Translations under genes and position numbers: made by a program | Notes under the pieces: model-generated | Told to the model about the DNA's origin: nothing | The model's database searches: none | The model's input: the letters and a program-made list of their open reading frames with translations, nothing else | DNA from: an uncultured SAR86 cluster bacterium | GTDB lineage: Bacteria > Pseudomonadota > Gammaproteobacteria > Magnimaribacterales > D2472 | NCBI GenBank assembly: GCA_902591665.1 | Contig: CACJBO010000002.1 | Coordinates: forward strand, 151,398-215,397 | Direction: 5' to 3' | Length of the DNA: 64,000 bases | Shown: piece by piece, positions 44,461 to 61,351 of the stretch | How positions within the stretch are numbered: the stretch's first letter is position 1 | Layout: each line of letters begins with the position of its first letter

Positions 44461-44720
44461 TAATATTTATCTTCCTCATCATTATGATCTTTGTATTTCT
44501 TATCTAATTTATTCATTAAATGAACATAGATAAAGATAAGAACAACAAACAAATAAATACTTCCTTGTTGAGCAAACCAAAATCCTAGCTTGAAGCCGCC
44601 AATTTGATATTGATCAAGAGAATCTGAAAATATGATTCCAAAACCAAAAGAAACCAAAAACCATATTGATAAGAGAATGATTAGAATTTTAAGATTAGCT
44701 CGCCAATAATCTTTATGCAT
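44460..44720 (-). CDS. DUF4212 small membrane subunit of the symporter
   Basis: YWRANL, GFKLGFWFAQQGSI. Confidence 0.85.
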   Translation of the reverse strand: MHKDYWRANLKILIILLSIWFLVSFGFGIIFSDSLDQYQIGGFKLGFWFAQQGSIYLFVVLIFIYVHLMNKLDKKYKDHNDEEDKY

Positions 44721-44843: not shown

Positions 44844-46058
44844 ATGGCATTTGAAGTAAGTGATAAAGCAAAAGAAATAAATGAGAGACTTGAAGTATTC
44901 ATGGAGGAGCATATTTATCCTCGTGAAAGAGACTATGATGAGTTTACAAGCAATCAAGACAACCTCTGGCAATATCCTGATTGGTATGAAGATCTAAAAA
45001 AAGAAGCAAAAAAACAAGAACTATGGAATTTATTTTTACCAAAAGAATATGCTCCTTGGAGTCCTGGCCTAACAAATTTAGAAATTGCAGGGCTTTTTGA
45101 AACAATGTCTAAGTCTGCATGGGCACAACAAATCTTTAATTGTAATGCCCCTGATAGAGGCAATATGGAAGTATTAGCAAAATATGGAACTCCTGAACAA
45201 CAAAAAGAATGGCTCGAACCATTATTAGCAGGTGAAATTAGATCAGCATATGCAATGACAGAACCAGATGTTGCTTCATCGGATGCAACAAATATGGAAC
45301 TAGAAATTAGACGTGATGGTGATGAGTATGTTCTAAATGGAAAAAAATGGTGGACAACTGGTGTTATCTCACCCAAATGTAAATTTATGCTTGTTATGGG
45401 AAAATCAAATCCTGAGAACTCTCGACATACACAACATTCAACAATCATTGTGCCCACTGATGCTGAGGGATTTTCAATTACAAGAGCCTTGAGATCTCTA
45501 GGCGAATATCACTCTCCTGGTGGTGAAGGTGATGTTGTTTTTAAAAATGTTCGTGTTCCGGTGTCTAATCTTATATTAGGTGAAGGAAGAGGATTTGAAA
45601 TAGCTCAGGGCAGACTTGGTCCAGGAAGGTTTCAATATGCGATGATGTTTGTTGGTATGGCTCAAAGATCTTTGGAGCTCATGTGTGAAAGAGCGCAAAA
45701 TAGAGTTGCCTTTGGTGAAGCTCTTATTAAGAAAACTAGTGTTCAACATGAAATAGCAAGAAGTCGGTGCGATATTGAGCAATGTCGATTACTTGTTTTA
45801 TCTGCTGCTGAAAAAATGGATAAATATGGAATTGATGCTGCAAGAGATTACATCTCAATGTTAAAAATAGTAGCGCCAAAAATGTGTGAAGATGTCTCTA
45901 GCAGAGCAATACAGATATTTGGAGGCATGGGCGTGTCTCAGGATACTCCGTTAGCGCATATATTTACTACAAGCAGATTTTGTAGAATTGCAGATGGTCC
46001 AGATGAAGTTCATATGTCTCAGTTGGCTAAACTTACCATAAGATCATTGTCGGGTTAG
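44844..46058 (+). CDS. Acyl-CoA dehydrogenase family protein (ACAD10/11-like)
   Basis: NCNAPDRGNMEVL, AMTEPDVASSDATN, QGRLGPGR, RIADGPDEVH. Confidence 0.9.
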   Translation: MAFEVSDKAKEINERLEVFMEEHIYPRERDYDEFTSNQDNLWQYPDWYEDLKKEAKKQELWNLFLPKEYAPWSPGLTNLEIAGLFETMSKSAWAQQIFNCNAPDRGNMEVLAKYGTPEQQKEWLEPLLAGEIRSAYAMTEPDVASSDATNMELEIRRDGDEYVLNGKKWWTTGVISPKCKFMLVMGKSNPENSRHTQHSTIIVPTDAEGFSITRALRSLGEYHSPGGEGDVVFKNVRVPVSNLILGEGRGFEIAQGRLGPGRFQYAMMFVGMAQRSLELMCERAQNRVAFGEALIKKTSVQHEIARSRCDIEQCRLLVLSAAEKMDKYGIDAARDYISMLKIVAPKMCEDVSSRAIQIFGGMGVSQDTPLAHIFTTSRFCRIADGPDEVHMSQLAKLTIRSLSG

Positions 46059-46074
46059 ATTTTAGATAAACAAC

Positions 46075-46102
46075 AAAAAAGGGAGCATAAGCTCCCTTTT
46101 TT
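46075..46102. terminator. Bidirectional intrinsic terminator
   Basis: AAAAAAGGGAGC-ataa-GCTCCCTTTTTT between the convergent ACAD and TonB receptor genes. Confidence 0.9.
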
Positions 46103-46116
46103 AATACTCTAATCAA

Positions 46117-48546
46117 TTAGAAGTTATATTTAACACTGAAGCTATGAGTTTCAGGTGCACCCATAGTCATTCCATTAACTCCACTTATTCCGCTTGCAAT
46201 TAATACTAACCTGACATAATTGTTGTCGGTTGCATTCTTAACTGAATAAGCAAGTTCCCATGAATCATTTCTCCAACCAATTTTATAATTTAAAAATTCT
46301 TGATCTTCTTTCTCTGCAAGCTCTGGATAGGCAGCTGGTAATTGGGCTTGCCATTGTGGTGAGAGCATTGGAGCTGAAGAGTATTCGTATGGGCCATCAT
46401 ATGAATAATCAACTCTTGAGAACATATTTCCATTTCCAAGAGGGAAATTATGAGAAAGTCCAATCGTATATGCATCATCAGGAGTTAGCCTTGCTGCAGC
46501 ATTAGAAAGAATATCTGGGGAGCCATCATCAACAGTAAAATATGACATATTTAAAGTCAGATTTGATGTTAATTTAGCAACAACATTTAAATCAAACCCT
46601 AGTCTCTCTGCTGTTTCGGTTGCATTTCCAACAATAGTTCCAGTACCTGTTGGACTTTGTGTAATGTAATGTTGGCCATCTGTGTCCATTGAAAAAGCAG
46701 TAGCGTTAAGCTGAACTTTATTGTTCATTAATCTTGATTTAATACCAACTTCAAAATTAGTTGTTTCAGTCTTATCAAAAGCTCTCATATCGCCTGTATC
46801 ACCAGAGGTAGAGTTAAAACCACCAGCTTTGTAACCAGTTGCAGCGGCTGCATAAAGCATTACATCATCTGAAAGATCTTTTTGAACGCTGAACGACCAT
46901 GTTGTTGCGCTATCAGATCTTGAAAAATTGTTATCTACATTTTGTAAGAAACCACTAAATGGCCAAGCATTGCCAAGCACAGCCTGTCTTGGAAGACCAA
47001 CAATAGCAGGATTACCTAATAAACCAGCCAAGGTAGGACTTACAGCTCCACCCAATAGAGCTTGAGCATATAAATCAGCATCTTTTTCTTCTGTAGTATA
47101 TCTAGCGCCAATTGTGTATCTGAAAGTATCAGAAACATGAACTGTCATTCTTCCAAAGATAGCCGCTGTTTCGTCAGACCACATCATGTCTTGAGCAATC
47201 TGATCTCCAGCCTCTGTTGTTGCAAAAAAACCACCAACACCTGGAAGAGCTGCTTGAAGTCCCTGAAGTGCAGCTAATTGTGCAGGTGAGGCAGCACCTG
47301 CTGCAGCTAAAGCTCCTAACTGTTGAGCCTGAGTACTAAGTTGTGTAAACCATGTTCCCCAAACAGGTGAAAAATCAGGACCAACTTCAATAGCAGCTTT
47401 ATTTGGATAACCGCCTGACTCTCCATATTCAGCATCAAGGAAAAATAACCCAACTGTATATTCTTTGTTGCCCATCATGTTTGAACTAAATCTTAATTCA
47501 TTAGTTAATGACTTACCTGGCATATTTCTCTTAAGTGTAAGCATGTCAAGAGATGTAAAATCTGCATCCCAGTGCCTAAATGCATCGTATTTATTCCTCG
47601 CAATGATATAAGTTAGAGTTCCGTTTTCTCTTTCTTGATCAACTTTAAGAGATGTTAATGTTGAATCTAAATTAAAATTAGGCGTCCCTGCTGAAGTTGC
47701 GTACTTATAATTTGTATAATCGTTGTCTGATGGGGTTCTTCCCAATAAAGGAATTCCAATTGCTACCTGTGAAGATGTTGGCACACTATCTACAGCACAA
47801 CATGTAGATTTTTTTGAAACATCTGAATGAGAAAATACATAACTAAGTTTTTCATTTTCATGATAAATCTTTAACCCAATCACTGAATCATCAACACCAT
47901 TTGCAGGCTGACCATCAACCATGTTTGTCATATAGCCATCTGACTCATTTACATTTGCACTTAATCTAATGGCAGTAGAATCTGAAAGGCCAAAACTCAT
48001 CGCTGAGGTTACTCTTGTTGAATTAAAATCGCCACTTTCATAATGAACAAAACCGTCTGAATCACCAGGCCTTGGTGTTTTTGTCGTTATATTAACAACA
48101 CCTGCATTTGAGTTCTTACCATATAAGGTACCTTGAGGACCTTGAAGGACTTCAATTCTTTCAATATCTATAAGATCATTTAATCCTAAGCCTGTTTTGT
48201 TAAGATAGACTCCATCTACAACAAGTGCTACATCAGACTCTAAGGATGCATCACTTTGACTGGTTCCAATACCTCTTATTCTCATAGATGCATTAAATGG
48301 ATCAACGTTATAATTAATGATTAACGTTGGTAATGCAGAGTCAATATCTCTTGCGGTTGTAATATTCATATCTTCAATTTGAGAAGCAGTCAAAACATCA
48401 ACCACCATTGGAATATCTTGAGCATTTGCTTCAGTTTTTGTTGCTGAAACAATTACTTCTTCAATTCCCTCTGAATCTTGAGAAATTAGACTTAAAGGTG
48501 CAAAAAGAACACCAAAAAACATCACTGTGCTAAAAAAATTTTTCAT
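46117..48546 (-). CDS. TonB-dependent receptor
   Basis: Signal peptide, TonB box EEVIVSA, plug IERIEVLQGPQGTLYGKN, C-terminal YNF; SD AGGGGGA. Confidence 0.94.
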   Translation of the reverse strand: MKNFFSTVMFFGVLFAPLSLISQDSEGIEEVIVSATKTEANAQDIPMVVDVLTASQIEDMNITTARDIDSALPTLIINYNVDPFNASMRIRGIGTSQSDASLESDVALVVDGVYLNKTGLGLNDLIDIERIEVLQGPQGTLYGKNSNAGVVNITTKTPRPGDSDGFVHYESGDFNSTRVTSAMSFGLSDSTAIRLSANVNESDGYMTNMVDGQPANGVDDSVIGLKIYHENEKLSYVFSHSDVSKKSTCCAVDSVPTSSQVAIGIPLLGRTPSDNDYTNYKYATSAGTPNFNLDSTLTSLKVDQERENGTLTYIIARNKYDAFRHWDADFTSLDMLTLKRNMPGKSLTNELRFSSNMMGNKEYTVGLFFLDAEYGESGGYPNKAAIEVGPDFSPVWGTWFTQLSTQAQQLGALAAAGAASPAQLAALQGLQAALPGVGGFFATTEAGDQIAQDMMWSDETAAIFGRMTVHVSDTFRYTIGARYTTEEKDADLYAQALLGGAVSPTLAGLLGNPAIVGLPRQAVLGNAWPFSGFLQNVDNNFSRSDSATTWSFSVQKDLSDDVMLYAAAATGYKAGGFNSTSGDTGDMRAFDKTETTNFEVGIKSRLMNNKVQLNATAFSMDTDGQHYITQSPTGTGTIVGNATETAERLGFDLNVVAKLTSNLTLNMSYFTVDDGSPDILSNAAARLTPDDAYTIGLSHNFPLGNGNMFSRVDYSYDGPYEYSSAPMLSPQWQAQLPAAYPELAEKEDQEFLNYKIGWRNDSWELAYSVKNATDNNYVRLVLIASGISGVNGMTMGAPETHSFSVKYNF

Positions 48547-48669
48547 TCTATAGTCCCCCTGTAGACTTTTATCTATTCAACTTAAAAAGATATCACAAAT
48601 TAAACAATAACTTTGTTCGTATACTATCAGAGTATGAGAATTATCCAACAGTATAGTTATGTATAAAAT

Positions 48670-49563
48670 TTAGTTCTTTTTTAGGCTACTAGCTGCTACG
48701 AAATTAGTACCCTTTAAAAGTTCTTCTATGTTTTCTAATACAGTTTGTTTTACTGCTCTAACGATAGGATTTGATCTAGAAAGTTCATGTTGTATTAAAT
48801 AAAAACCAATCTTAAATGAGTAATCATCTTTTTTAAATGGAACCAATCTGGGGTCATTGTCGCCATCTAAATCTGTCAGAAAAGTAACACCATTTCCTGA
48901 GGATACGAATGCGTGTGCGTCTTGATAGGAGTTTGAAGAAATTATTATATTTGGATTTTGAAAAAAACTATTAACTACAAAATTGGTATCTGCCTGATCT
49001 TTTCTTATATATGTTACCCATTCAAAATCATCAATATTTTTGACTTTCTTAAAGTATTCTTTGCTTCCGTATATATGCATATTTAATTCACCAAGCAAAG
49101 TTGCTATTGAATCTTCAGGAGGATTAGTAGTTCCGACAAATCCAATGTCATACATTTCTGTAGTAAGGTCACTTGAATCAGAATGATTCATTATATGAAT
49201 ATTGAGGTTAGGGAAATTCTTTCTAAGTTTGGTAATAATATTAGTCATATTGTTACCACCCTCGCCCTGTTTGTAGACTACCAGCTTTCCATCCATTAAA
49301 TCAGGATTGGGTATAAATCTTTCTTTTAATGCTGCGATTTTAAAATCAATTTTTTGAACTTCTTTGTATAAATCTTTACCGTGAACTGTTAACGCATACC
49401 CTGAATTTCTTCTTTCAAATAATTTGATAGCTAATTCTTTTTCAAGTTTTTCAATTTTCCTGGAAACGGTAGAGTGGTTAACCCCCATTTCTTTAGCACA
49501 ACCACTCAAGGTGCCATGATTTGCACAAGAGATAAAATATTCTAGATTTCCCCAATCGAGCAT
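48670..49563 (-). CDS. LysR family transcriptional regulator
   Basis: HTH GTLSGCAKEMGVNHSTVSRKIEKLEKEL, LFER. Confidence 0.9.
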   Translation of the reverse strand: MLDWGNLEYFISCANHGTLSGCAKEMGVNHSTVSRKIEKLEKELAIKLFERRNSGYALTVHGKDLYKEVQKIDFKIAALKERFIPNPDLMDGKLVVYKQGEGGNNMTNIITKLRKNFPNLNIHIMNHSDSSDLTTEMYDIGFVGTTNPPEDSIATLLGELNMHIYGSKEYFKKVKNIDDFEWVTYIRKDQADTNFVVNSFFQNPNIIISSNSYQDAHAFVSSGNGVTFLTDLDGDNDPRLVPFKKDDYSFKIGFYLIQHELSRSNPIVRAVKQTVLENIEELLKGTNFVAASSLKKN

Positions 49564-49640
49564 TTTAAATTGATTTAAACTGTTTAAATTTGAACATAAT
49601 ATACTACGGTTGATTAAATATAATCAATACATAAGCTCTA

Positions 49641-49659
49641 ATTTGTTATATGAACAAAT
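49641..49659. promoter_or_regulatory. Candidate LysR binding site ATTTGTT-N5-AACAAAT
   Basis: Perfect 7-bp dyad containing T-N11-A, between the divergent lysR and sulfatase genes. AT-rich, so it could be a chance match. Confidence 0.45.
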
Positions 49660-49686
49660 CGATATTTAGATTAGACTCAGAAATCT

Positions 49687-51321
49687 ATGAAAAGATATGT
49701 CTTGTTATTAGTATTTTTGTTTATAGCTATTTTTGGATGGGTATATAAAAGAGAAATTGCTTTAACACTTTTACCTATTGCTTTGAATATAAGCACTCCA
49801 ATTGCTGATAATCAAGATATTGAATGGCAAAAATCAGAATCTAAAAAAAACATAGATAAGCCAAATATCATACTTATTTTGGCAGATGACTTAGGTTTTA
49901 ATGATGTTTCTTTTTACAATGGCGGAGCTGCAGATGGCAGCTTAATGACGCCTAACATAGACCAACTAGCAAAAGATGGTGTTGCATTTATGAATGGTTA
50001 TGCTGCAAGTCCTGTTTGCTCTCCATCAAGAGCTGCAATTATGACAGGAAGATATTCAAGCAGATTTGGCTTTGAATTTACTCCCTATCCAGCATCAGCT
50101 GCAAGAATTATGAATATGTTGAGAAAAGATGGCGAATTAGAAAATATTGAATTAGAGGACGTTCAATGGGATGAAGTTGGTTTAGCTGTTGGAGGACTGC
50201 CAACAGAGGAAATAACTATTGCAGAGCTACTAAAAAATGATGGCTACTATACTGCACACATCGGCAAGTGGCATTTAGGTGGATTCACAGATGGAATGAA
50301 ACCAAATGACCAAGGTTTTGATGACAGTCTTAGGATGTACAGCAGTTTATATCTTCCAAAAAACCATCCAGATGTAATTAATGCAAAAAAAGATTCTAGT
50401 GTGGAAGATATGGTTTGGGCATCCTCACAATATGCAGCTGAGTTTAACGGAAGTGAGCCCTTTGAGCCCTCAGGATATATTACAGATTACTATACTGATG
50501 AAGCTATAAATGTAATTAACAATAATACGGATAGGCCTTTTTTCATTTATTTGGGGCATTTTGCACCACATAACCCCCTTCAATCACTTAAAGAGGATTA
50601 TGAAAAACATCAACATATGCAAAATCATACCCTTCAAGTTTATTCTGGAATGATTGAAGCTCTTGATAGATCAGTAGGAAAAATAGTGGAGGCGTTGGAA
50701 AAAAATGGATTATCAGAGAACACCCTAATAATCTTTACCTCGGATAACGGTGGAGCAGGTTATATTGGGTTACATGACATTAACAAGCCATATCGTGGTT
50801 GGAAACTTACTCATTTTGAAGGAGGAATGCACATACCTTTTTTTGCAAAATGGCCTGCAAAAATAACAAAAAATACTCAATATGATAAAAGAATTCATCA
50901 TACTGATATATTTAGTACTATTCTTGGGGCAGCAAATATTGAACCACCAAAAAATATTAAAATAGATGGAAAAAATCTTATTCCATTTCTAACCGATAAA
51001 AAATTTGGACAGCCTCATGAAACCTTGTATTGGAAGAATGCAACTTATCAAGCGATTATTCATGACGATTGGAAATTAATGAGATCTACTTATCCAAAAA
51101 AGCAAGAATATTTATTTAATTTAAATAATGATCCATATGAAAAAAATAATCTTGCTAGTGTTGAGATTGAAATTAAAAATTCATTGCATCGCATGATGGA
51201 CCAACATGTTGAATCTATGCCAAAACCTAAATGGCCGCAATCAGTTTTTATGCCAGTTACAATAGACAATCCAATAACAGATTATAAAGAAGGTGACGAA
51301 TTAATTTATTGGCCAAATTAA
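49687..51321 (+). CDS. Cys-type (formylglycine) sulfatase, arylsulfatase family
   Basis: ILADDLG, CSPSRAAIMTG, GKWHLG, TSDNG. Confidence 0.93.
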   Translation: MKRYVLLLVFLFIAIFGWVYKREIALTLLPIALNISTPIADNQDIEWQKSESKKNIDKPNIILILADDLGFNDVSFYNGGAADGSLMTPNIDQLAKDGVAFMNGYAASPVCSPSRAAIMTGRYSSRFGFEFTPYPASAARIMNMLRKDGELENIELEDVQWDEVGLAVGGLPTEEITIAELLKNDGYYTAHIGKWHLGGFTDGMKPNDQGFDDSLRMYSSLYLPKNHPDVINAKKDSSVEDMVWASSQYAAEFNGSEPFEPSGYITDYYTDEAINVINNNTDRPFFIYLGHFAPHNPLQSLKEDYEKHQHMQNHTLQVYSGMIEALDRSVGKIVEALEKNGLSENTLIIFTSDNGGAGYIGLHDINKPYRGWKLTHFEGGMHIPFFAKWPAKITKNTQYDKRIHHTDIFSTILGAANIEPPKNIKIDGKNLIPFLTDKKFGQPHETLYWKNATYQAIIHDDWKLMRSTYPKKQEYLFNLNNDPYEKNNLASVEIEIKNSLHRMMDQHVESMPKPKWPQSVFMPVTIDNPITDYKEGDELIYWPN

Positions 51322-51347
51322 GTTTAGTGATTATTAGAGAGGAGTAA

Positions 51348-52415
51348 ATGAAAGTTTTAAGAACACCGGATGAATGTTTTAAAAATATAAAAGATTATCC
51401 CTTTGATCCAGTTTATACAAACATAGAAACGAAAGATGGTACTTCATTAAGAATTCATCATATTGATGAAGGTCCTAAAGATGGTCCCATTTTGTTAGCA
51501 ATGCATGGTCAACCAGTATGGAGTTATCTTTATGCCAGAATGATCCCATTTCTAACCGAAGCAGGAATAAGAGTTATAGCTCCTGACTTAGTTGGTTACG
51601 GTAAGTCAGATAAGCCAGCTGCAAGAGAAGACTATTCTTATCAAAATCAAGTTGATTGGATGGGAGAATGGTTAAAGAAAAATGATTTTCAAAATTTAAC
51701 TTTTTTTGGACAAGATTGGGGAGGCTTAATAGGTTTAAGAATGGTGGCTGCAGATCCCGATAGATTTATAAAAATTGCTATGGGTAACACAGGTCTTCCT
51801 TATAACCCTAATGCTCCTCAAGAAGTTATAGATGAAGTAAATGAGTTTAGAGCATCAAATAAAAAGATAAGCTTCTTTGGAATGACCAAAGAAGTTAGCA
51901 AAATGGATAAAAATAAACATATGGCAACAAAATTTATGTACTGGCAAAAATTTACCTGGGATTCAAAAAATCTTCCAATTGGTTTAATTAACTCTTTTCA
52001 AATGGAGAGTCAGTTTAGGAAATCTCCGGTCAAAGCATATATCCATATACTGTTACAAAAAATAGGACTAGAAAAAATTTCACCGTTCTATACTGATTTA
52101 ATGAAAGCTTATGAAGCACCCTTCCCCAACCCATCATATAAAATGGGCCCAAGGGCAATGCCTAGTCAAGTTCCAATGATACCTGACCAATCTTTAGATG
52201 CTCAGAGAAAAGCAAGAGAGTTTTTTAAAACTTCCGATAAACCTTTTCTAGCTATTTTTGCAGGTAATGACCCTGTAACAAATGGAGCGGAGAAAGATGT
52301 TCTGAGGATGGCTCCAAATGCAAAAAGTGCCCCTCATATTGGCGGGGGTCATTTTTTTCAATGGACTAAATCAGAACCACTATCTAAGATATTAATAGAT
52401 TTTATTAAAGAGTAA
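51348..52415 (+). CDS. Haloalkane dehalogenase-like alpha/beta hydrolase
   Basis: [44 protein letters not shown]. Confidence 0.85.
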
Positions 52416-52420
52416 TTTTT

Positions 52421-53104
52421 ATGATTCATTTATATACAGCCTCAACACCTAACGGTCATAAAGTATCTTGCTTGTTAGAAGCATTAGAGATGCCTTACGA
52501 AGTTCATTCAGTAAACCTTGCTGAAGATGAGCAAAAAAAACCTGAATTTTTAAAGATTAGTCCCAATGGCAGAATCCCAGCTATTGTAGATACTGATAAT
52601 GATGACCTTTCAATCTTTGAGTCTGGTGCAATAATGCTTTATCTTGCAGATAAGGCGGGCAAGCTTATCCCAAATGATGTTAAAGGAAGAGCAAAAGTAA
52701 CTGAATGGCTCATGTTTCAAATGGGTGGTATCGGTCCAATGATGGGTCAAGCAAATGTTTTTTTTAGATATTTTCCTGAAAAAATTCAGCCAGCTATAGA
52801 TAGATATCAAAATGAATCAAGGCGTCTTTTTGAAGTTTTAGATACCCATTTAGCTGACAATAAATGGCTGGCAGGAGAATATTCGATTGCAGACATTGCT
52901 AACTGGTGCTGGGTTAGAACCCATAATTGGTCGGGTGTATCAATTGATGGACTAACCCATCTAGAAGATTGGAAAAATAGAATGTATGAGCAGCCAGGAA
53001 TGATTAAGGGAACTAAAGTGCCAGTAGATAGAGAAAGTATCTTAAAAAATGAAAAAGATGAAAAAGAATTTATAAAAAACGCACAAAAAATGGTAAAAAA
53101 ATAA
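52421..53104 (+). CDS. Glutathione S-transferase, YfcG/Nu-class-like
   Basis: TPNG active-site motif, [24 protein letters not shown]. Confidence 0.9.
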
Positions 53105-53116
53105 GGGGGAAATTTT

Positions 53117-53731
53117 ATGTTAAAAGTTTATTTTACACCTGGAACTAGAGCGGGAAGAGTGGTTTGGCTGCTAGAAGAATTAGGATTAGATTATGATGTG
53201 GATATCTTACCTTTTACAAAAGAGGGTTTGAAATCTCCAGAACATAGATCGAGACACGCATTAGGAAGAGTGCCAGTTCTTGAAGATGGTGATATTTCCA
53301 TATTTGAATCTGGAGCAATTATTCAATATATTCTTGAGCGTCATAAAGATGGTGGTCTTAAGCCTGATTCAGACTCTGAAGAGTTTCCATACTATCTTCA
53401 ATGGTTTCATTATTGTGAAGGCATGGTTATGCCGCCAATGAACCAAGTTGTAGTTCAAACAATTCTATTGCCTCCAGACAGAAGAGATGAGAATGTTCTA
53501 AAGCAAGCACAAAATCTGATAACTAAATCTCTTGGACCCGTTAATGAAAACCTTGCAGACAAAGATTACTTAGTTGGTAATTTTTCTGCAGCTGATACCA
53601 TGCTTGGTCATTCATGCTTTATGGCTAATAGATTGGGATGTGTTCCTGACGAGATGGATCATATAAAAAATTATGTAGCTCGTATTGAAGCAAGACCAGC
53701 ATTCCAAAAGGCAATAACTTTAGGAGAATAA
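53117..53731 (+). CDS. Glutathione S-transferase family protein
   Basis: RAGRVVWLLEELG, GRVPVL, ESGAI, FSAAD. Confidence 0.9.
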   Translation: MLKVYFTPGTRAGRVVWLLEELGLDYDVDILPFTKEGLKSPEHRSRHALGRVPVLEDGDISIFESGAIIQYILERHKDGGLKPDSDSEEFPYYLQWFHYCEGMVMPPMNQVVVQTILLPPDRRDENVLKQAQNLITKSLGPVNENLADKDYLVGNFSAADTMLGHSCFMANRLGCVPDEMDHIKNYVARIEARPAFQKAITLGE

Positions 53732-54139
53732 ATGAAATATAAAAATAGCGTTCATCCCACCAAAGAACAAATGGAAGGATTTCTTGAGGGTGACAATGAA
53801 ACACCAATCGCCATGATTAATCTTTTGAAGTTTAAAGAAAAAGCTGAATACGAAGACGGTAGAGATACTAATCTAACTGGCGAGCAAGCATATGCCATAT
53901 ATAGCGAAGAGGTTATTGAGCATTTAAAAAAGGTTGGTGGTGAAGTATCTTTTGGTGGATCTATAAATCGTCTAATGCTTGGGGAAGTGGAAGAACTTTG
54001 GGATAAAACTTTTATTGCGAAATATCCTAGTAAAAAAGCAATGCTCAAAATGATTACAGATCCTGACTATTTGGAAAGCAATAAACACAGGGTAGCAGGA
54101 CTTGCAGGACAGCTTAATATAGAAGTTAAAGAATTATAA
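53732..54139 (+). CDS. DUF1330-like alpha+beta barrel protein
   Basis: MINLLKFKE, AYAIY, KVGG, YPS, HRVAGL. Confidence 0.75.
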   Translation: MKYKNSVHPTKEQMEGFLEGDNETPIAMINLLKFKEKAEYEDGRDTNLTGEQAYAIYSEEVIEHLKKVGGEVSFGGSINRLMLGEVEELWDKTFIAKYPSKKAMLKMITDPDYLESNKHRVAGLAGQLNIEVKEL

Positions 54140-54141
54140 TT

Positions 54142-55248
54142 TTGAAGCAATTACAGACATTAAAGAATGATCTTTTAAAAACTAGAATCGTTCAAACAAA
54201 AAACTTAGAAATTGAAGAAGCTGAAATTTTAGTATCAATAGAAAGCTTTGCTTTTACATCTAACAATGTTACTTATGGAGTAGCTGGCGATACGATAGGT
54301 TATTGGCAATTCTTTAAAACAAAAGAAGATGCTAACAATGAATGGGGTTGCATACCGGTATGGGGATTTGCAAAAATCATTAAATCAAATGTCGAAGAAT
54401 TAATTGTTGGAGAAAGGTTATTTGGATATTTTCCTCCAGGCGATATCTTAAATTTAAAACCTATTAAAGTTACCAATCAAGGATTTACGGATGGCAAAGA
54501 ACATCGTAAAGATCTCCCAGCCGTATATAACAATTATTTAAGATTATCGGGGGATGCTAATTACGATAACTCATTAGATGATATTAGATCATTATTATTT
54601 CCACTGCATATAACATCTTTTTGTATATGTGATGCATTAGAAGATGAGGCCTATTTTGGTTCAGATCAAATTATTATAGTCAGTGCATCAAGTAAGACTG
54701 CAATTGGTGTTGCGCAGGGGCTGCAAGAAGCTTCTAATGCTCCATCAATAATAGGCCTTACTTCTCAAAAGAATCTAGATTTTGTTAAAAGCTTGGGTTG
54801 TTATGACGAGGTGATTGCATATGATTGCCTATCAGATGTAAATTTTAACCTTAAGTCTGTAATGGTTGATATGGCAGGAAGCCGAGAGATTCTAGGAACT
54901 CTTCATGGATCACTTGCTGACAAAATGCTTAAATGCTTAACAGTTGGTATGACTCATTGGGACAATGAAGTTACCGCTGAAGATGCTCTTGGTCAGGCCA
55001 TGCTTAGGGAAAGAACAGAATTCTTTTTTGCTCCAGCTCATATTCAAAAACGAGTGAAAGATTGGGGTCATGAAGGCTATAACCAAAAGACAAATGAATT
55101 CATGAAAACTAGATCTATTCAAAGTGCAGATTGGATGCAAGTGAAAAAAATTATAGGTCTTGAAGATTTTATATCTACGTATGAGAAGTTTGTAAGTGGA
55201 GACATAAACCCAACCGAAGGAATTATTGTAGAGTTAGAAAATGAATAA
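54142..55248 (+). CDS. DUF2855 family protein
   Basis: FAFTSNNVTYG, GYWQFF, PVWGFA, SASSKTA, FFFAP; TTG start. Confidence 0.8.
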   Translation: MKQLQTLKNDLLKTRIVQTKNLEIEEAEILVSIESFAFTSNNVTYGVAGDTIGYWQFFKTKEDANNEWGCIPVWGFAKIIKSNVEELIVGERLFGYFPPGDILNLKPIKVTNQGFTDGKEHRKDLPAVYNNYLRLSGDANYDNSLDDIRSLLFPLHITSFCICDALEDEAYFGSDQIIIVSASSKTAIGVAQGLQEASNAPSIIGLTSQKNLDFVKSLGCYDEVIAYDCLSDVNFNLKSVMVDMAGSREILGTLHGSLADKMLKCLTVGMTHWDNEVTAEDALGQAMLRERTEFFFAPAHIQKRVKDWGHEGYNQKTNEFMKTRSIQSADWMQVKKIIGLEDFISTYEKFVSGDINPTEGIIVELENE

Positions 55249-56278
55249 AAAGATAAAAGTTTTTGGGGCCCCTGCCTCACCTTATACACAGAAAATGGTC
55301 TCTATTTTAAGGTATCGCCATATTGCCTATGAAGTTTTTATGGGTGATGTTCCAGGAAGATTAAGCAGGCTAGAAGGAATAGAGCCGCCAAAGCCTATTT
55401 TACTTCCTACCCTTCTTTTAGAAGATGAAAGTGGTAAATTAAAAGCAACTACCGATACCACCCCTATCATTAGAAGGTTTGAAAGCGAGTATCCAAATAG
55501 AAAATTATTACCAGAGGATCCTGCTTTATCTTTCATAAATTATTTATTAGAAGATTTTGGTGATGAATGGGTTACTAAATATATGTTCCATTACAGATGG
55601 TATTTTGATGAAGATGCAGATAATGCGTCAACCGTCCTTCCATTGAGTGATCTTGCTGTGAATATGCCTGATGAAATACTTAAGGATGCAAAAAAATATG
55701 TTCATGATAGGCAGACTGGAAGGTTATGGGTTGTAGGATCAAACGATACAACAGCTGATTTAATAGATTCTAGTTATAAAAGATTTTTAAAATTGATGGA
55801 TGATCACTTATCTATTAGTAAATTTCTTTTTGGTGAAAAGCCTTCTTCTGCTGATTTTGCTATATATGGACAATTAACCCAGCTCATTGGTTTTGATCCT
55901 ACATCAAGAAAAATTGCTTACGATACCGCATTAAGGCTTGTTTCTTGGCAAGATGTAATGGCTGACTTATCTGGTCATGATGTTGAGAATAGTAACTGGA
56001 CTCCTCTTGAGGAAAGCCCCACTTCTTTAAAAGAAATTATGAAAGAGTTTGGTAGGATGTATGTTCCAGCTTTAATAGCAAATGCAGATGCAATTATGAA
56101 GGGCGAGGAAACATGGGAAGCAGAAATTGATGGGTCTTTGTGGACACAAAAAGCCTTTCCTTACCAAGCTAAATGTTTGAAGTGGATTAAAGAGGAGTTC
56201 GAAGCACTTAGTGAAAATGATCAGTCTAGAGTTAAAACTTTTCTTGATGGAACGGGGTGCGAAAAATTATTAGGATAA
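55241..56278 (+). CDS. Long GST-family protein (345 aa)
   Basis: GAPASPY, DTTPII, EDFGDEW, KYMFHYRW, ADFAIYGQL. Confidence 0.8.
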   Translation: MNKKIKVFGAPASPYTQKMVSILRYRHIAYEVFMGDVPGRLSRLEGIEPPKPILLPTLLLEDESGKLKATTDTTPIIRRFESEYPNRKLLPEDPALSFINYLLEDFGDEWVTKYMFHYRWYFDEDADNASTVLPLSDLAVNMPDEILKDAKKYVHDRQTGRLWVVGSNDTTADLIDSSYKRFLKLMDDHLSISKFLFGEKPSSADFAIYGQLTQLIGFDPTSRKIAYDTALRLVSWQDVMADLSGHDVENSNWTPLEESPTSLKEIMKEFGRMYVPALIANADAIMKGEETWEAEIDGSLWTQKAFPYQAKCLKWIKEEFEALSENDQSRVKTFLDGTGCEKLLG

Positions 56279-56282
56279 AGCT

Positions 56283-57086
56283 ATGGAAATAAAAAATAAA
56301 AGAATCGTAGTTACTGGTGCTGCAAGTGGCATTGGGTTGGCACTATGTGAGGAATTTTATGCAAGCGGTGCGCAGTCTATTGTATGCGTAGATCTCAATG
56401 AAGATGGCACTATGGAAATTGCAGAAAAAATTAATGGCCTTGCAGTGACAGCTGATGTGTCTAATGAACAAGACATAATTAATGTAGTTGAAAAAGCAAA
56501 TGAATATTCCGGAGGTATAGATATATTTTGTTCTAATGCGGGAATTGGTGGAACTCCAATGCTTTTAGAAACCACTTCTGAAGAATGGAATCATACTTGG
56601 GGCGTCAACGTAATGTCCCATGTTCATGCAGCTAGACATGTTTTACCTCAAATGCTTGAAAGAGGTGAAGGTTATTTAATGAATACAGCATCAGCTGCAG
56701 GACTATTATCTCAAATAGGTGCCGCCCAATACGCTGTTACTAAATCAGCGGCGGTAAGTTTTGCTGAATGGGTAAAAATTACATATGGTCAAAAAGGAAT
56801 TGGCGTTTCATGTCTATGCCCTCAGGCCGTAAGAACTGCAATGACCGCTCAAGGTGCTGGAGTCGCTGGGGTAGATGGAATGCTTGAACCTGATGTGGTT
56901 GCTAAAGATGTTATAGATGCAATTGAGAATGAAAGATTTTTGGTATTGCCTCACAAAGAAGTGAGTGAATATGTCCAAAGAAAGGGAAATGACAGAGATA
57001 GATGGATAACTGGGATGCAAAGACTGCAAAAAGAATATGAAGATTTTTATGAAAGTTGGGTTAGTGGAGATAAAGGAGAAAAATAA
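56283..57086 (+). CDS. SDR oxidoreductase
   Basis: TGAASGIG, NAG, YAVTK. Confidence 0.9.
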   Translation: MEIKNKRIVVTGAASGIGLALCEEFYASGAQSIVCVDLNEDGTMEIAEKINGLAVTADVSNEQDIINVVEKANEYSGGIDIFCSNAGIGGTPMLLETTSEEWNHTWGVNVMSHVHAARHVLPQMLERGEGYLMNTASAAGLLSQIGAAQYAVTKSAAVSFAEWVKITYGQKGIGVSCLCPQAVRTAMTAQGAGVAGVDGMLEPDVVAKDVIDAIENERFLVLPHKEVSEYVQRKGNDRDRWITGMQRLQKEYEDFYESWVSGDKGEK

Positions 57087-58054
57087 TGAAAACTAAAATA
57101 ACAGAACTATTTGGTATTGAGCACCCTATTATTCAAGGTGGCATGCATCATGTAGGATTTGCTGAACTTGCTGCAGCTGTTTCTAATGCAGGTGGACTAG
57201 GAACTATTACTGGCTTAACTCAAGGTACCCCAGAAAAGTTAGCAAATGAAATTGCAAGATGTAAAGAGATGACAGATAAACCTTTTGCTGTAAATTTAAC
57301 CTTTCTACCTTCTTTAACACCTCCAGATTATCCAGGATTAATTAAAGAAATAATTGATGCAGGAGTTCCAGTTGTTGAAACTGCTGGAAGAAACCCTGCA
57401 GAATATTTACCGGCTCTCAAGGAAGCTGGAATAAAAGTGATTCATAAGTGCACCTCTGTTAGGCACTCTATAAAAGCTCAATCAATTGGTTGTGATGCTG
57501 TATCGGTTGATGGTTTTGAATGCGGTGGTCACCCTGGTGAAGATGATATTCCTAATTTTATTTTATTGCCTAGAGCTGCAGAAGAGTTAGAGATTCCATT
57601 TGTGGCATCAGGTGGAATGGCTGACGGCAGAAGTTTAGTTGCTGCGATGGCACTTGGAGCAGAAGGAATGAATATGGGAACAAGATTTATAGCGACACAA
57701 GATGCTCCAGTTCATCAAAATGTTAAAGAAGCTATTGTTAATGCAACAGAACTTGATACTCGATTGATTATGAGATCATTAACAAATACAGAAAGAGTTC
57801 TTAATAATGAAGCTGTAGAAAGACTGATGGAAAAAGAAAAAAGATTGGGCGATGATCTCAAGTTTGAAGACATTCTTGATGAAGTTGCTGGTGTTTATCC
57901 AAAAATTATGCATGAAGGAACCATGGAAGCAGGCGCTTGGTCTTGTGGAATGGTAGCTGGGCTTGTTAATGACATCCCAACAGTCCAAGACTTAATAAAT
58001 AATATTATGTCCCAGGCTGATGAGATAATTAAATCAAGACTGCAAAATTTCTAA
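57086..58054 (+). CDS. Nitronate monooxygenase family flavin oxidoreductase
   Basis: PIIQGGM, AVSNAGGLG, ECGGHPG, ASGG, MGTRF. Confidence 0.88.
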   Translation: MKTKITELFGIEHPIIQGGMHHVGFAELAAAVSNAGGLGTITGLTQGTPEKLANEIARCKEMTDKPFAVNLTFLPSLTPPDYPGLIKEIIDAGVPVVETAGRNPAEYLPALKEAGIKVIHKCTSVRHSIKAQSIGCDAVSVDGFECGGHPGEDDIPNFILLPRAAEELEIPFVASGGMADGRSLVAAMALGAEGMNMGTRFIATQDAPVHQNVKEAIVNATELDTRLIMRSLTNTERVLNNEAVERLMEKEKRLGDDLKFEDILDEVAGVYPKIMHEGTMEAGAWSCGMVAGLVNDIPTVQDLINNIMSQADEIIKSRLQNF

Positions 58055-58057
58055 AAA

Positions 58058-59254
58058 TTATTTTTTATAATTTGCAGCTTCTTCAGATCCGTCGGTTGCT
58101 GTACCTTTTGTATAAGAGTGAGCTCCCATTCCTGCAAGATCACCGTCTTTAACAATTAAATATGGTTCTCTAATTGGCTCTCCAGCAAAGAAACACTCAA
58201 GTATTTCTCTTACACCAGCAGCATACCTGGCTTGAGCGGATAATGATGTTCCAGAAGTATGAGGAGTCATACCGTGGTTTGGCATTGTTCTCCAAACATG
58301 ATCATTAGGAGCTGGTTGCGGGAACCAAACATCTCCAGCATAACCACTTAACTGACCAGATTCTAAAGCTCTTGCAATTGCATCTTTGTCACAAATCTTT
58401 CCTCTAGCAGTATTAACAATATAAGCACCGCGCTTCATTTTTGCGATCATCTCATCATTAAATAAGTGTTCTGTCTTTGGATGCAGTGGACAACTAATAT
58501 TAACCACATCACAAACAGCAACTAAAGATTCAACAGAATCATGATAAGTAAGATTTAGTTCTGCCTCGACCTCATCAGGTAATTTATGAATGTCGAAATA
58601 GTGCAGATGGACATCAAAAGGTTTCATCTTTCTTAACATGTCGATACCTATTCTTCCTGCAGCTACAGTTCCGACATGCATTCCTTCAACATCATATGAT
58701 CTTTGAACAGCGTCAGCTATATTCCAACCACCTTCATTAACTATCCTGTGTTGATTGTGGTAATCCCTTACCATTGAAAGAATCATCATTACAATATGCT
58801 CTGCAACAGATCTTGAATTACAGTATGTAACCTCCACAACATCTATGTTGTGATCCATAGCTCCTTGAAGATCTACGTGGTCTGAACCGATTCCAGCAGT
58901 TATTGCCATCTTAAGATTTGGAGCGGTTTCCATCTTTTCACGAGTTAAATAATAGGGAAAGAATGGTTGAGATATCACTATATCAGCATCAACTAATTCT
59001 CTATCTGCTTCACACCCTTCACCATCTTTGTCAGATGTAACTACTAATGTATGTCCAGCGTCTTCTAGAAATTTTCTAAGTCCTAACTCTCCTGAAACAC
59101 ATCCAAGTAATTCTCCTGGAGTAAAATCAATGCCCTTAGGAGACGGCAATGTCATCCCATCTGGATATTTATCAATTTTTGGTAAATCATCTCGTGCATA
59201 CTTTTCGGGCATGCCAGTTTTTGGATCATCGTATAAAACGCATAATACTTTCAT
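58058..59254 (-). CDS. fdh: NAD-dependent (metal-free) formate dehydrogenase
   Basis: KVLCVLYDDP, ELLGCVSGELGLRKFLE, GIGSDHVD, AAGRIG, WFPQPAP, TPHTSG, as in Pseudomonas sp. 101-type FDH. Confidence 0.94.
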   Translation of the reverse strand: MKVLCVLYDDPKTGMPEKYARDDLPKIDKYPDGMTLPSPKGIDFTPGELLGCVSGELGLRKFLEDAGHTLVVTSDKDGEGCEADRELVDADIVISQPFFPYYLTREKMETAPNLKMAITAGIGSDHVDLQGAMDHNIDVVEVTYCNSRSVAEHIVMMILSMVRDYHNQHRIVNEGGWNIADAVQRSYDVEGMHVGTVAAGRIGIDMLRKMKPFDVHLHYFDIHKLPDEVEAELNLTYHDSVESLVAVCDVVNISCPLHPKTEHLFNDEMIAKMKRGAYIVNTARGKICDKDAIARALESGQLSGYAGDVWFPQPAPNDHVWRTMPNHGMTPHTSGTSLSAQARYAAGVREILECFFAGEPIREPYLIVKDGDLAGMGAHSYTKGTATDGSEEAANYKK

Positions 59255-59332: not shown

Positions 59333-60223
59333 TTAAGCTTTGATAAGTGGGTTATGCTTAACTTTATCTGGAATGTCTTCTGCACCAGGAACACCTCTAG
59401 CAATTAAAAAAGGTTTAAGTGCTTCTATGGCCTTAGGTTCATCATAATGACCAATACCAGGATGGAGGTGATGTATAAAATGAAGTTGCATTGAATGATT
59501 TAAATATCTAGGCATCCAGTGGCTCCAAAATCTTGTATCTTTATATCTTCCTGTTTCAGTTTGATAATGAGGATACCAGCTGAAAAAGACTGAAAGATAA
59601 ATGACTCCAAACTTACTTGGCAACCACCATAATAGAAGTGTCTCTAAGGGAAAAAATACAACTAAGGTCAAAAGAATTACTCTATATAACATTCCTACAT
59701 TCAGACCTTTATTAAAGGATTTCATGAATGCTTTATCATTTTCATAGATTTGGGCTATCGCCTGATATTTTGATATTCCTGCCTGAGTTGCAACAATGAC
59801 CTCCCAAATAGATTTAGCAGATGCAGTATCATGATCTGGATCTTTTTCTGGATTATTTGTATAAGCATGATGTTTCATGTGAGTAGCTCTCATAACATCA
59901 TGAGGAAACATGAGTGTTATTAATGTGTAATGGCTTACAAATGAATCGATCCAACGTCTTTTTGGATTTCCCCTTGAATAATTACCGTGCTGTGCTTCAT
60001 GCGAAGGCAAGTATGCAAAGCAGGCACAAATAGTTGCAATGACAGAGCCAAGTAATAAAGAAATATGTCCATTAATAACTAATGGCCACAGAGAAAGCCA
60101 AATCGTTGCTTGACCAACCCCGATTAAGACCATCTCCCATTGAAACCTTTTTGAAAAACTTCTAGCGATCTCTTTTTCTTTATCAAAAGAAAATTCTTCT
60201 GAAATCTTTTCTAGATTTTCCAT
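59333..60223 (-). CDS. Membrane di-iron fatty acid desaturase/hydroxylase family protein (CrtR-like)
   Basis: His boxes HEAQH, HMKHH, HFIHH. Start moved to ATG 60223, 7 nt after SD GAGGAA. Confidence 0.8.
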   Translation of the reverse strand: MENLEKISEEFSFDKEKEIARSFSKRFQWEMVLIGVGQATIWLSLWPLVINGHISLLLGSVIATICACFAYLPSHEAQHGNYSRGNPKRRWIDSFVSHYTLITLMFPHDVMRATHMKHHAYTNNPEKDPDHDTASAKSIWEVIVATQAGISKYQAIAQIYENDKAFMKSFNKGLNVGMLYRVILLTLVVFFPLETLLLWWLPSKFGVIYLSVFFSWYPHYQTETGRYKDTRFWSHWMPRYLNHSMQLHFIHHLHPGIGHYDEPKAIEALKPFLIARGVPGAEDIPDKVKHNPLIKA

Positions 60224-60411
60224 AACCATGTTCCTCTTATCTTTGCTATAAGGCCAAGAAATAAACCTAAGATATAACAATAAATAGTAATATCAGTAAA
60301 TTGATAGCGAATAGCTATAGCATTAAAGACACTTCCCCAAAAAATTAGGCCAAACCATACCATGTTCCAATTGGAAATATGATCTGTAAGAATTTCCTTG
60401 AATTTATCCAT
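60211..60411 (-). CDS. Small hypothetical membrane protein (66 aa)
   Basis: Two hydrophobic segments; fills the gap before the desaturase and overlaps its start by 13 nt. Confidence 0.55.
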   Translation of the reverse strand: MDKFKEILTDHISNWNMVWFGLIFWGSVFNAIAIRYQFTDITIYCYILGLFLGLIAKIRGTWLWKI

Positions 60412-60514: not shown

Positions 60515-61351
60515 TTATTGAAAAATATCCAGATTTCTTTCTAAGCTTTTTATGCTTAAAGTCTTTTCGTCATGTCTTGAGGTTTCAATAAGACATTGTC
60601 TCCATATGTAATCTAAAAAATAAGTAAATTTGACCCAGCTTTTTAATTTTTCTTGATCAAGAAAAAAATTTTTACTGTAGCCACATAATAAATAACCAGT
60701 CTCCTTATCATTAAAATCATATGAAGAAATGATTGAGGCTAAATCAAAATAAGGACTATTTAAGGATGCATACTCCCAATCTATAAAAAAATATTTTCTA
60801 TTAAATAAAATATTTTGACGATTTAAATCATTATGAGAAAAAATTATTTGCTCTTTTTCGCAAGAGAGAGAATCAAAAATTTTGAAGCCTTGATTTAGAT
60901 ACCAATTATTTTTAATTTTGTTTTTAAGAATGTCTCTATAATTTTCTATGAGATTTTTAAAATTATTAATTGCAACATTATCAATTTTTATTTCATGAAC
61001 TTTTTTAATTTCTTTACCTAAAGAAATTAAATTTTCTTTTCTTCTAATATCAGAATATGAAATTTCTTTACCGTCATGAAATTCTCTTATTAGAATTCCT
61101 CTATCTAAATCGTGGTATAAAACTTTTTGATTTTGAATTTTTGTTTTTAAAAAATTAAGAATCTGAAATTCTGAAGCTCTTTGTTTTTTCAACCAATTTG
61201 GTATATCAAAATCAATCCTTATTACAGATTTAATGCCATTAAAATTGCATAGAAAAATTTGAGAAATTAGATCAATTTTTAAAGATGAAATAATTTCAAT
61301 TTTGTGATCAACCGAAGCAATTTTTTTGTCAATTTTTTGCATCAATTTCAT
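60515..61351 (-). CDS. Choline/thiamine kinase-like phosphotransferase (APH/ChoK fold)
   Basis: HNDLNRQNIL and IDWEYA; coupled to pnuC. Confidence 0.8.
   Translation of the reverse strand: MKLMQKIDKKIASVDHKIEIISSLKIDLISQIFLCNFNGIKSVIRIDFDIPNWLKKQRASEFQILNFLKTKIQNQKVLYHDLDRGILIREFHDGKEISYSDIRRKENLISLGKEIKKVHEIKIDNVAINNFKNLIENYRDILKNKIKNNWYLNQGFKIFDSLSCEKEQIIFSHNDLNRQNILFNRKYFFIDWEYASLNSPYFDLASIISSYDFNDKETGYLLCGYSKNFFLDQEKLKSWVKFTYFLDYIWRQCLIETSRHDEKTLSIKSLERNLDIFQ

Follow-up and report, generated by a model that had tools for sequence, protein, structure and literature searches.

A conserved, transcribed gene cluster of SAR86 bacteria encoding a predicted haloalkane dehalogenase, glutathione transferases and two orphan protein families

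The window analysed here, a 64,000-nt stretch of DNA from an uncultured bacterium of the SAR86 cluster (GenBank assembly GCA_902591665.1, contig CACJBO010000002.1, positions 151,398 to 215,397), contains at 49687-58054 a run of nine genes on the + strand, with products that include a sulfatase, a haloalkane dehalogenase (HLD) and three glutathione transferases (GSTs). An earlier note, made from the letters of the sequence, had described these nine co-oriented genes as a candidate system for the catabolism of sulfated and/or halogenated hydrophobic compounds. Calling of open reading frames (ORFs) reproduced the coordinates exactly, and profile searches reproduced the families. The genes encode, in order, a putatively exported S1-family sulfatase, referred to below as type A (49687-51321; Pfam Sulfatase, E 5e-57), a predicted haloalkane dehalogenase of subfamily I (HLD-I; 51348-52415), the Nu-class-like GST1 (52421-53104; PDB 4eci, E 6e-89), GST2 (53117-53731; Pfam GST_N and GST_C), a DUF1330 protein (53732-54139; Pfam, 23.7 bits), a DUF2855 protein (54142-55248; Pfam, E 9e-95, 319 bits), a long GST of 345 amino acids (aa) (55241-56278; Pfam GST_N_3 and GST_C_6), a short-chain dehydrogenase/reductase (SDR; 56283-57086; adh_short, E 1e-41) and a PA1024-like protein of the nitronate monooxygenase (NMO) family (57086-58054; PDB 2gjl and 6e2a, E 2e-109).

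The gaps between the nine genes were measured as 26, 5, 12, 0, 2, -8, 4 and -1 nt, in agreement with the upper limit of 26 nt given earlier, and the reported absence of an internal terminator was likewise borne out, the only two + strand candidates within the run being weak and located inside coding sequence. The region gave 11 terminator-like matches against 9.9 +/- 3.7 expected from shuffled sequence, i.e. a chance level. However, since the genome is 97% coding, neither the spacing nor the lack of terminators is informative as operon evidence. In the window (97% coding, about 33% G+C), the median gap between genes on the same strand is -1 nt, 33 of the 40 such gaps do not exceed 26 nt, and 7 unrelated housekeeping genes (aroQ, accB, accC, leuS, holA and others) are packed equally tightly, so that tight spacing by itself is no better than chance as evidence for an operon. 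What raises the nine-gene run above chance is the conservation of the gene set across lineages, together with RNA contigs that bridge the junctions. The cluster was found in many marine metatranscriptome assemblies, contigs from four marine metatranscriptome runs covered the whole of it, and all eight gene junctions were bridged, with the sulfatase/dehalogenase and DUF2855/long GST junctions each spanned by contigs that match exactly. This is what a polycistronic mRNA predicts, and the co-transcription implied by the earlier note is upheld by it. The RNA evidence consists of assembled contigs, in which DNA carry-over is possible, and some of the libraries (four runs) are RNA by presumption only. 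These data support the view that 49687-58054 is one conserved, transcribed polycistronic unit.

Related loci were gathered via an alignment of DUF2855 proteins from one-genome-per-species collections, 80 of 126 confirmed loci being kept; the window proteins were then mapped onto the loci, all ORFs were clustered and the gene orders were read. The relatives of the window's DUF2855 locus were almost all found in SAR86 genomes. Among the 48 loci that extend 7 kb or more to either side of DUF2855, the commonest partner was DUF1330 (88%), followed by the dehalogenase (75%), the long GST (73%, with the alphaproteobacterial version described below included), GST2 (71%, always co-oriented), GST1 (62%), a sulfatase (62%), the NMO-family gene (58%) and the SDR (44%), and these partners were nearly always on the same strand as DUF2855. 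Gene order differs among the SAR86 clades, while membership holds down to 60% DUF2855 identity. One of the other orders, for example, begins with an NMO paralogue, the long GST, the dehalogenase, GST1, GST2, DUF1330 (often duplicated) and a small membrane protein, and continues with DUF2855, a sulfatase where there is one, DUF4345, a metallo-beta-lactamase (MBL)-fold hydrolase, the SDR and the NMO-family gene. The extra genes of other versions, in SAR86 and in alphaproteobacteria (examples are L020 9507-9983, L046 12762-14204 and L010 6519-7166), encode a 158-aa multi-pass membrane protein without a Pfam family, a DUF4345 membrane protein, a signal-anchored MBL-fold hydrolase and a DsbA/kappa-GST-like protein. 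A search of the window for these four, as well as for the TetR regulator and the acyl-CoA synthetase seen elsewhere, detected none of them.

A four-gene core (DUF1330, the dehalogenase, the long GST and DUF2855) was also found in PS1/OCS116 alphaproteobacteria, at 52-70% protein identity to the window and in several independent single-cell genomes and metagenome-assembled genomes. There, the DUF1330, dehalogenase and long GST genes are divergent from DUF2855, and a membrane protein and an MBL hydrolase are added. Since an identity of 52-70% is high for two different classes, this reduced cluster suggests lateral spread of a functional module, and the occurrence of the core in a different arrangement fits a module of transferable function. 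The conserved heart of the cluster is accordingly predicted to be a cytoplasmic module consisting of a long-cap HLD-I, DUF1330, DUF2855 and a long Ser-type GST, with two GSTs (one of the Nu class) and the pair of SDR and PA1024-like protein as apparent SAR86 additions. The gene-order conservation looked for earlier therefore holds for the core, in the SAR86 and the PS1/OCS116 loci, but not for the flanks (LysR, TonB receptor and formate dehydrogenase, see below), and it did not extend to the other two groups that had been named: among the 80 loci kept of the 126, the sole Halieaceae-labelled one (L059), which bears on OM60, has DUF2855 with an unrelated SDR only, and no locus carries the label SAR92. 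DUF2855 adjoins a second, different HLD-like hydrolase in other gammaproteobacterial genomes. DUF2855 genes 62-69% identical to that of SAR86 were also observed in genomes assigned to distant taxa, namely L069 and L070 (single-cell genomes labelled Marinimicrobia) and L039, L050 and L061 (labelled Rhodobiaceae). Lateral transfer could account for this, as could contamination or mis-binning; the gene of L069 and L070 adjoins a small multidrug-resistance transporter and has no other cluster genes with it.

Such variation bears on the possibility that the run is a composite of independent sub-modules, i.e. i) the DUF2855/DUF1330/HLD/long-GST core, ii) the SDR and quinone-reductase pair, iii) a recruited sulfatase and iv) unrelated neighbours, which are held together by genome streamlining and have no single shared substrate. 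A composite would be in keeping with a window in which 97% of the sequence is coding and unrelated housekeeping genes lie equally close, with an SDR-NMO pair that the alphaproteobacterial version lacks and that, in other SAR86 clades, has further genes between it and DUF2855, and with a sulfatase that shifts position and is often absent; moreover, PA1024 in Pseudomonas presumably adjoins an SDR and acyl-CoA dehydrogenases. However, the SDR/NMO pair, GST1/GST2 and the sulfatase stay with the core through several SAR86 rearrangements, two different sulfatase orthologues are each retained inside the cluster, and RNA contigs bridge all junctions. We therefore consider a composite of this kind unlikely.

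The dehalogenase scores above the curated threshold of its family (NCBIfam PRK00870, 327 bits with a cutoff of 265; Abhydrolase_1, E 1e-20). It matches the HLD-I structures 6f9o, 5esr and 4mj3 with E values of 1e-72 to 1e-77 and DhlA with 2e-44, as compared with only about 75 bits for HLD-II enzymes, and is thus assigned by similarity to subfamily HLD-I. Members of this subfamily, such as DhlA of Xanthobacter and the enzymes of 6f9o, 5esr and 4mj3, have in common with it an alpha/beta-hydrolase core, an Asp-His-Asp triad and a Trp-Trp halide pair. The nucleophile D123, W124, the cap residue W199, the acid D308 and the HGxP motif are invariant in 51 of 51 dehalogenase orthologues; D308 and W199 align with the corresponding residues of 6f9o and 5esr, and H335, in the motif GGGHF, aligns with the catalytic His of these two. 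The catalytic pentad is apparently intact, and release of halide is predicted. The SAR86 enzyme differs from characterised HLD-I enzymes in being embedded in a conserved multi-gene cluster and in having a cap about 45-55 residues longer (355 aa in total, compared with about 300-310), which suggests a different, possibly bulkier substrate.

The flanking gene at 58058-59254 (- strand) encodes an NAD-dependent formate dehydrogenase (FDH; PRK07574, 667 bits with a cutoff of 329) and is separated by 3 nt from the PA1024-like gene that closes the cluster. HLD-I enzymes such as DhlA, as well as theta-class GSTs, turn dihalomethanes into formaldehyde. The cluster might thus serve the oxidation of one-carbon (C1) halocarbons, with dihalomethanes converted via formaldehyde or S-formylglutathione to formate, and the formate oxidised for energy by the FDH so close by. 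However, the FDH gene has the opposite orientation and lies beside the cluster in the nearest clades only, genes for the handling of formaldehyde were not recognised, and the enlarged cap, three GSTs, sulfatase, SDR and quinone reductase would be superfluous for C1 compounds, which makes this scheme very improbable. The FDH, which the earlier note had included as a flank of the system, is better seen as a convergent neighbour, adjacent to the cluster in 8 loci.

The three GSTs appear to be of different kinds. GST1 also matches the structures of YfcG (3gx0, E 1e-50), YghU (E 6e-35) and NaGSTNu (5uun, E 8e-34), has the N-terminal motif STPNGHK and was matched by the NCBIfam models of YfcG and YghU below their equivalog cutoffs; it is assigned on this similarity to the Nu class (YfcG/YghU-like) and is a candidate glutathione lyase or disulfide reductase. 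Nu-class GSTs can act as glutathione lyases, freeing alpha-glutathionyl ketones of glutathione (PMC5892560). The closest solved relatives of GST2 are plant phi-class GSTs (6to3, E 1.5e-23; maize GST I, 1axd, E 1e-17), and no bacterial class could be assigned to it from searches against solved structures. The long GST has an invariant SPY(T) motif, the Ser13 of which aligns with the SPF motif of the plant GSTs 8jzk and 7dwf, at a position which we take to be that of the catalytic Ser of the tau class. Sequence and profile searches of solved structures gave only weak GST matches that were unspecific as to class. Its AlphaFold2 (AF2) model (predicted local distance difference test, pLDDT, 83; predicted template modelling score 0.85) has a GST fold with a C-terminal extension of about 85 residues, and the nearest folds, an uncharacterised Ralstonia GST (4kf9) and the epoxide-opening StyI (9qd3), are barely ahead of those of other classes.

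DUF1330, which is duplicated in many SAR86 clades, matches only the solved RPA0582 (PDB 3dca and 3hhl, E 1e-24), itself uncharacterised. For DUF2855, no sequence match and no usable profile match was found among PDB structures. Its AF2 model is of low confidence (pLDDT 60.7); a Foldseek search with it gave hundreds of medium-chain dehydrogenase/reductase (MDR) enzymes, headed by PA1648, plant double-bond reductases, CurA and PTGR1 (E 1e-11 to 1e-8 and template modelling (TM) score about 0.3 for the top matches). Alignment by hhalign with a neighbouring MDR was collinear but weak and without significance (probability 7%), with the invariant SASSKTAIG of DUF2855 weakly aligned to the AxxGxxG cofactor loop of the MDR; the glycine-rich A-x-x-G-x-x-G loop for NAD(P)H is itself not found in DUF2855, which has SASSKTAIG instead. 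A fold like that of the MDR family, and in particular of the double-bond reductases, is likely from the model, while a function as NAD(P)H-dependent reductase is uncertain. A 501-aa database protein (P0001) at first resembled a DUF1330-DUF2855 fusion; its sequence has an internal tandem duplication of about 170 residues in DUF2855 and a frameshift towards the C-terminus, and is probably an artefact of assembly.

The SDR is of the classical type and has no NCBIfam equivalog. It is always paired with the NMO-family gene, and the pair is conserved in SAR86 clusters. The NMO-family protein is 54% identical to PA1024 over 318 residues, i.e. its full length (369 bits), as compared with 197 bits to FabK (the FabK model being matched below its cutoff) and at most 95 bits to true NMOs. 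PA1024 of Pseudomonas aeruginosa is an FMN-dependent NADH:quinone oxidoreductase and not a nitronate monooxygenase (PMC10033279). The window protein is thus assigned, by this identity, as a PA1024-like NADH:quinone oxidoreductase homologue, so that the family calls of the earlier note stand for all nine genes as families, but the function implied by the name NMO does not. The two proteins belong to the same FMN TIM-barrel family and differ in the gate, the hydrogen-bonded Gln80/Tyr261 pair of PA1024 being Leu/Phe in the SAR86 homologue.

The sulfatase contains the maturation motif CSPSR, and CAPSR or CSPSR is present in 41 of the 42 cluster-linked sulfatases. According to a hydropathy heuristic, it has a single N-terminal hydrophobic segment (residues 1-27), and since it is the only cluster protein with such a segment, it should be exported or membrane-anchored and act outside the cytoplasm. 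Among solved structures, it is closest to the carrageenan sulfatases of S1_19 (6prm, E 1e-69) and S1_16, with steryl sulfatase farther away, and the search of solved structures revealed no resemblance to alkylsulfatases of the metallo-beta-lactamase or dioxygenase type. The kinship with carrageenan sulfatases, together with the TonB-dependent receptor nearby (see below), could point to a locus for the utilisation of sulfated polysaccharides; the conserved partners, however, are of dehalogenase, GST and reductase types, and no glycoside hydrolase, lyase, sugar transporter or SusD-like gene was found in the cluster or in the 80 related loci, and we find such a locus hardly credible.

The cluster-linked sulfatases fall into two orthologue groups, types A and B, which occur together in no locus. 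Type A (that of the window; at least 74% identity) is the first cluster gene in 11 genomes, and type B, about 48-51% identical to type A, directly follows DUF2855 in about 28 genomes, including the closest relatives of the window (L001, L002, L005 and L006). Two alternative joints were observed in the metatranscriptomes: one connects 49637 to 51448 and skips the leading sulfatase, and the other connects 51312 to 55248 and links the end of a sulfatase to the start of the long GST, so that a sulfatase lies between DUF2855 and the long GST. Environmental populations carry these alternative cluster architectures, and both agree with what is seen in the genomes at L001, L002 and L006. Since a sulfatase is absent from a third of the SAR86 versions and from the alphaproteobacterial version, it is best regarded as a swappable accessory outside the core chemistry. 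At the same time, that the cluster keeps one or the other of two sulfatases speaks for a real functional link.

A regulator is always near the cluster, although its family varies, being LysR here and TetR elsewhere. In the window, the LysR gene (48670-49563, - strand; HTH_1 and LysR_substrate domains) is divergent from the sulfatase gene, and a TonB-dependent receptor gene (46117-48546, - strand; plug and beta-barrel domains) comes next. This arrangement is present as the earlier note had it, but only in the nearest clade, other clades having a divergent TetR gene: the LysR gene, which has no NCBIfam equivalog, is beside the cluster in 7 loci (the window and 6 near relatives), and the TonB receptor gene (47-91% identity, no specific NCBIfam family) in 6. 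The receptor is a possible, clade-specific uptake component. The divergent control region between the LysR and sulfatase genes (49564-49686) contains a perfect dyad, TTGATTAAATATAATCAA, at 49610-49627 and a conserved block, AAATATGAACAYAATATACTA; these blocks are kept in an alignment of 7 relatives, whether the sulfatase or the dehalogenase gene comes first. On the far side of the receptor gene is an acyl-CoA dehydrogenase (ACAD) gene (44844-46058, + strand; ACAD domains, generic by NCBIfam). As a flank it does recur, a close orthologue (87-98% identity) being no more than about 8 kb away from the cluster in 11 loci, but it is loosely placed, in three arrangements. The proposal that the SDR and the ACAD feed beta-oxidation found no support in the window, which contains no beta-oxidation set (ligase, hydratase and thiolase). 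In other SAR86 clades, the cluster is adjoined by genes for a FATP-type acyl-CoA synthetase, an ACAD, a PTGR1-type (alkenal-reductase) MDR and saccharopine-dehydrogenase-like reductases, and because of these neighbours a lipophilic, fatty-chain substrate is favoured.

The rest of the window encodes housekeeping genes, a proteorhodopsin and transporters, with no further related catabolic genes. Amid a housekeeping region (parC/parE, a tolC-like gene, mutM and coaD) there is a bacteriorhodopsin-family gene of the proteorhodopsin type (40674-41429, + strand; Pfam, E 5e-44), which precedes position 44844 by about 3.4 kb and the nine-gene cluster by about 8 kb. At 42712-44720 (- strand) are genes for a VC_2705-family sodium/solute symporter (861 bits) and a small DUF4212 subunit, followed by an SDR gene (41996-42712); this trio is also beside the cluster in L002, L012 and L013 and, reversed, in L031, L038 and L052. 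On the other side, a gene at 59333-60280 (- strand) encodes a membrane protein of the fatty-acid-desaturase family with a weak CrtR-like match (62 bits); it is near the cluster in several clades, and in L031, L037, L038 and L052 it directly follows the type B sulfatase. A tight run at 60515-63822 (- strand), conserved downstream of the cluster in near relatives, contains genes for a choline/ethanolamine-kinase-like phosphotransferase, a PnuC-family transporter and a second TonB-dependent receptor, and looks like a vitamin/nucleoside salvage unit.

Three described pathways resemble the cluster in part. In the Lin pathway for gamma-hexachlorocyclohexane in Sphingobium, LinB is a haloalkane dehalogenase, LinC an SDR, LinD a glutathione-dependent reductive dechlorinase and LinR a LysR regulator. 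A haloalkane dehalogenase, an alcohol-oxidising SDR, a halide-removing GST and a LysR regulator would thus be common to both. However, LinB belongs to HLD-II and the SAR86 dehalogenase to HLD-I by assignment, no members of the LinA dehydrochlorinase, LinE ring-cleavage dioxygenase or LinF maleylacetate reductase families were found among the cluster genes, and DUF1330, DUF2855, the long GST, the sulfatase and the quinone reductase have no Lin counterpart. Furthermore, the lin genes are dispersed, whereas the SAR86 genes form one apparent operon. In the Lig beta-aryl-ether pathway of sphingomonads (PMC5892560), the SDR LigD produces a carbonyl beside a leaving group, the GST etherases LigE and LigF substitute this group by glutathione, and LigG or a Nu-class GST lyase removes the glutathionyl group as glutathione disulfide (GSSG), a logic that the SAR86 genes may follow. 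The likeness is mechanistic only, since the SAR86 cluster lacks aromatic catabolic genes, adds a dehalogenase and a sulfatase, and has in its long GST merely a distant fold match to LigE. By its gene content, therefore, the cluster belongs to neither the Lin nor the Lig pathway. In the isoprene and styrene epoxide pathways, a GST (IsoI or StyI) opens the electrophile and an SDR (IsoH) oxidises the conjugate, much as is proposed here, but the SAR86 cluster has no monooxygenase or CoA-transferase and the sequence identity of its long GST is only about 16-17%. The earlier remark that no described pathway of such composition was known agrees with our reading of the literature on SAR86 with dehalogenase, GST or sulfatase, which gave no description of the cluster; in the literature searched, there was no paper on DUF2855 and DUF1330 was mentioned only in passing. 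An isolate-anchored comparison of SAR86 reported a high GST copy number and proposed a role with hydrophobic compounds (PMC11582366), without describing, in its main text, a cluster of this kind, a dehalogenase or a sulfatase. The cluster is built from known enzyme kinds and two orphan families, and its logic has precedents.

We propose, tentatively and with slightly less than even confidence, that the cluster is an inducible, glutathione-dependent module which dehalogenates or processes reactive lipophilic compounds, coupled in this clade to uptake and periplasmic desulfation. A lipophilic algal metabolite bearing leaving groups (halide and, here, also sulfate ester) would cross the outer membrane, possibly via the TonB receptor, and would be desulfated in the periplasm by the exported or membrane-anchored S1 sulfatase. 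In the cytoplasm, the dehalogenase would exchange halide for hydroxyl by hydrolysis, and the SDR would convert the resulting alcohols into carbonyls. The Ser-type GSTs (GST2 and the long GST) may then displace activated (alpha or allylic) leaving groups or add glutathione to enones or epoxides, with the Nu-class GST1 taking the glutathionyl group off again to yield GSSG, while DUF2855 and the quinone reductase may reduce the resulting enone or quinone-type electrophiles. Binding of LysR at the conserved dyad would render expression inducible. The gene content, the conservation, the catalytic residues and the transcription across all junctions are observed, whereas we infer in which order the steps follow, to which class the substrate belongs, what DUF1330 and DUF2855 do and whether carbon is assimilated.

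Several observations weigh against this proposal. The nine genes show no evident link to central metabolism, and the sequence indicates no substrate and does not decide between nutrition and detoxification. The closest solved relatives of the sulfatase act on sulfated sugars, no formylglycine-generating enzyme (FGE or anSME) was found among the annotated ORFs of the window, and the genes for the sulfatase, LysR and the TonB receptor are missing from many versions of the cluster. Confidence in the DUF2855 model is low, both in pLDDT (60.7) and in TM (about 0.3), and the cofactor loop is replaced, which makes reductase activity uncertain. GSTs are numerous across SAR86 (PMC11582366), and their co-location may partly reflect expansion of the family. 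Finally, the contig-based RNA evidence is compatible with DNA carry-over, and for four of the runs an RNA origin is presumed only.

Alternatively, the cluster may be a general defence island against electrophiles and quinones, in which the GSTs, a quinone reductase, an ene-reductase-like protein and a promiscuous dehalogenase guard the cell against reactive exudates of algae (polyunsaturated aldehydes, haloquinones and alkyl halides), with no gain of carbon. PA1024-type enzymes reduce quinones, GSTs of the Nu class work as disulfide reductases or lyases instead of classic conjugators, SAR86 genomes contain many GSTs, the nine genes have no route to central metabolism, and the cluster is covered in every marine metatranscriptome examined, as steady expression would predict. 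On the other hand, a dedicated LysR or TetR regulator and, in this clade, an exported sulfatase and an outer-membrane importer fit deliberate uptake, acyl-CoA synthetase and ACAD genes adjoin the cluster in other SAR86 clades, and the stable multi-enzyme make-up across two bacterial classes suggests a defined substrate. Defence alone is somewhat unlikely in our judgement, though to be taken seriously, and the module for processing reactive lipophilic compounds remains the reading we favour.

A more specific form of it is that the cluster is a dedicated route for polyhalogenated algal lipids, e.g. chlorosulfolipids, in SAR86 and, in reduced form, in PS1/OCS116. The sulfatase would then remove the sulfate esters and the long-cap dehalogenase and the GSTs the chlorines, with DUF1330 and DUF2855 as new enzymes acting on halohydrin or enone intermediates. 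Chlorosulfolipids, which are polychlorinated alkyl sulfates, were reported in 2026 to be dissolved in coastal seawater (PMC13413282). We consider this dedicated route decidedly unlikely as it stands; if it were true, the marine organohalogen cycle would have in this cluster a major biological sink that has gone unrecognised, and the two orphan families would gain functions.

SAR86 bacteria rank with the most abundant surface-ocean heterotrophs, and their substrates are poorly known. The cluster is conserved across the order, is expressed at sea and has apparently spread to further lineages of oligotrophs. It also holds an apparently intact member of the haloalkane dehalogenase family, the natural role of which is largely unknown outside pollutant degraders. 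Should the cluster prove to be only a detoxification island, it would help to explain the unusual GST richness of SAR86. If, instead, it acts on natural organohalogens or reactive algal lipids, a dominant bacterial group would be tied to the turnover of halogenated dissolved organic matter, and testable functions would be provided for DUF2855, DUF1330 and a new subfamily of long GSTs.

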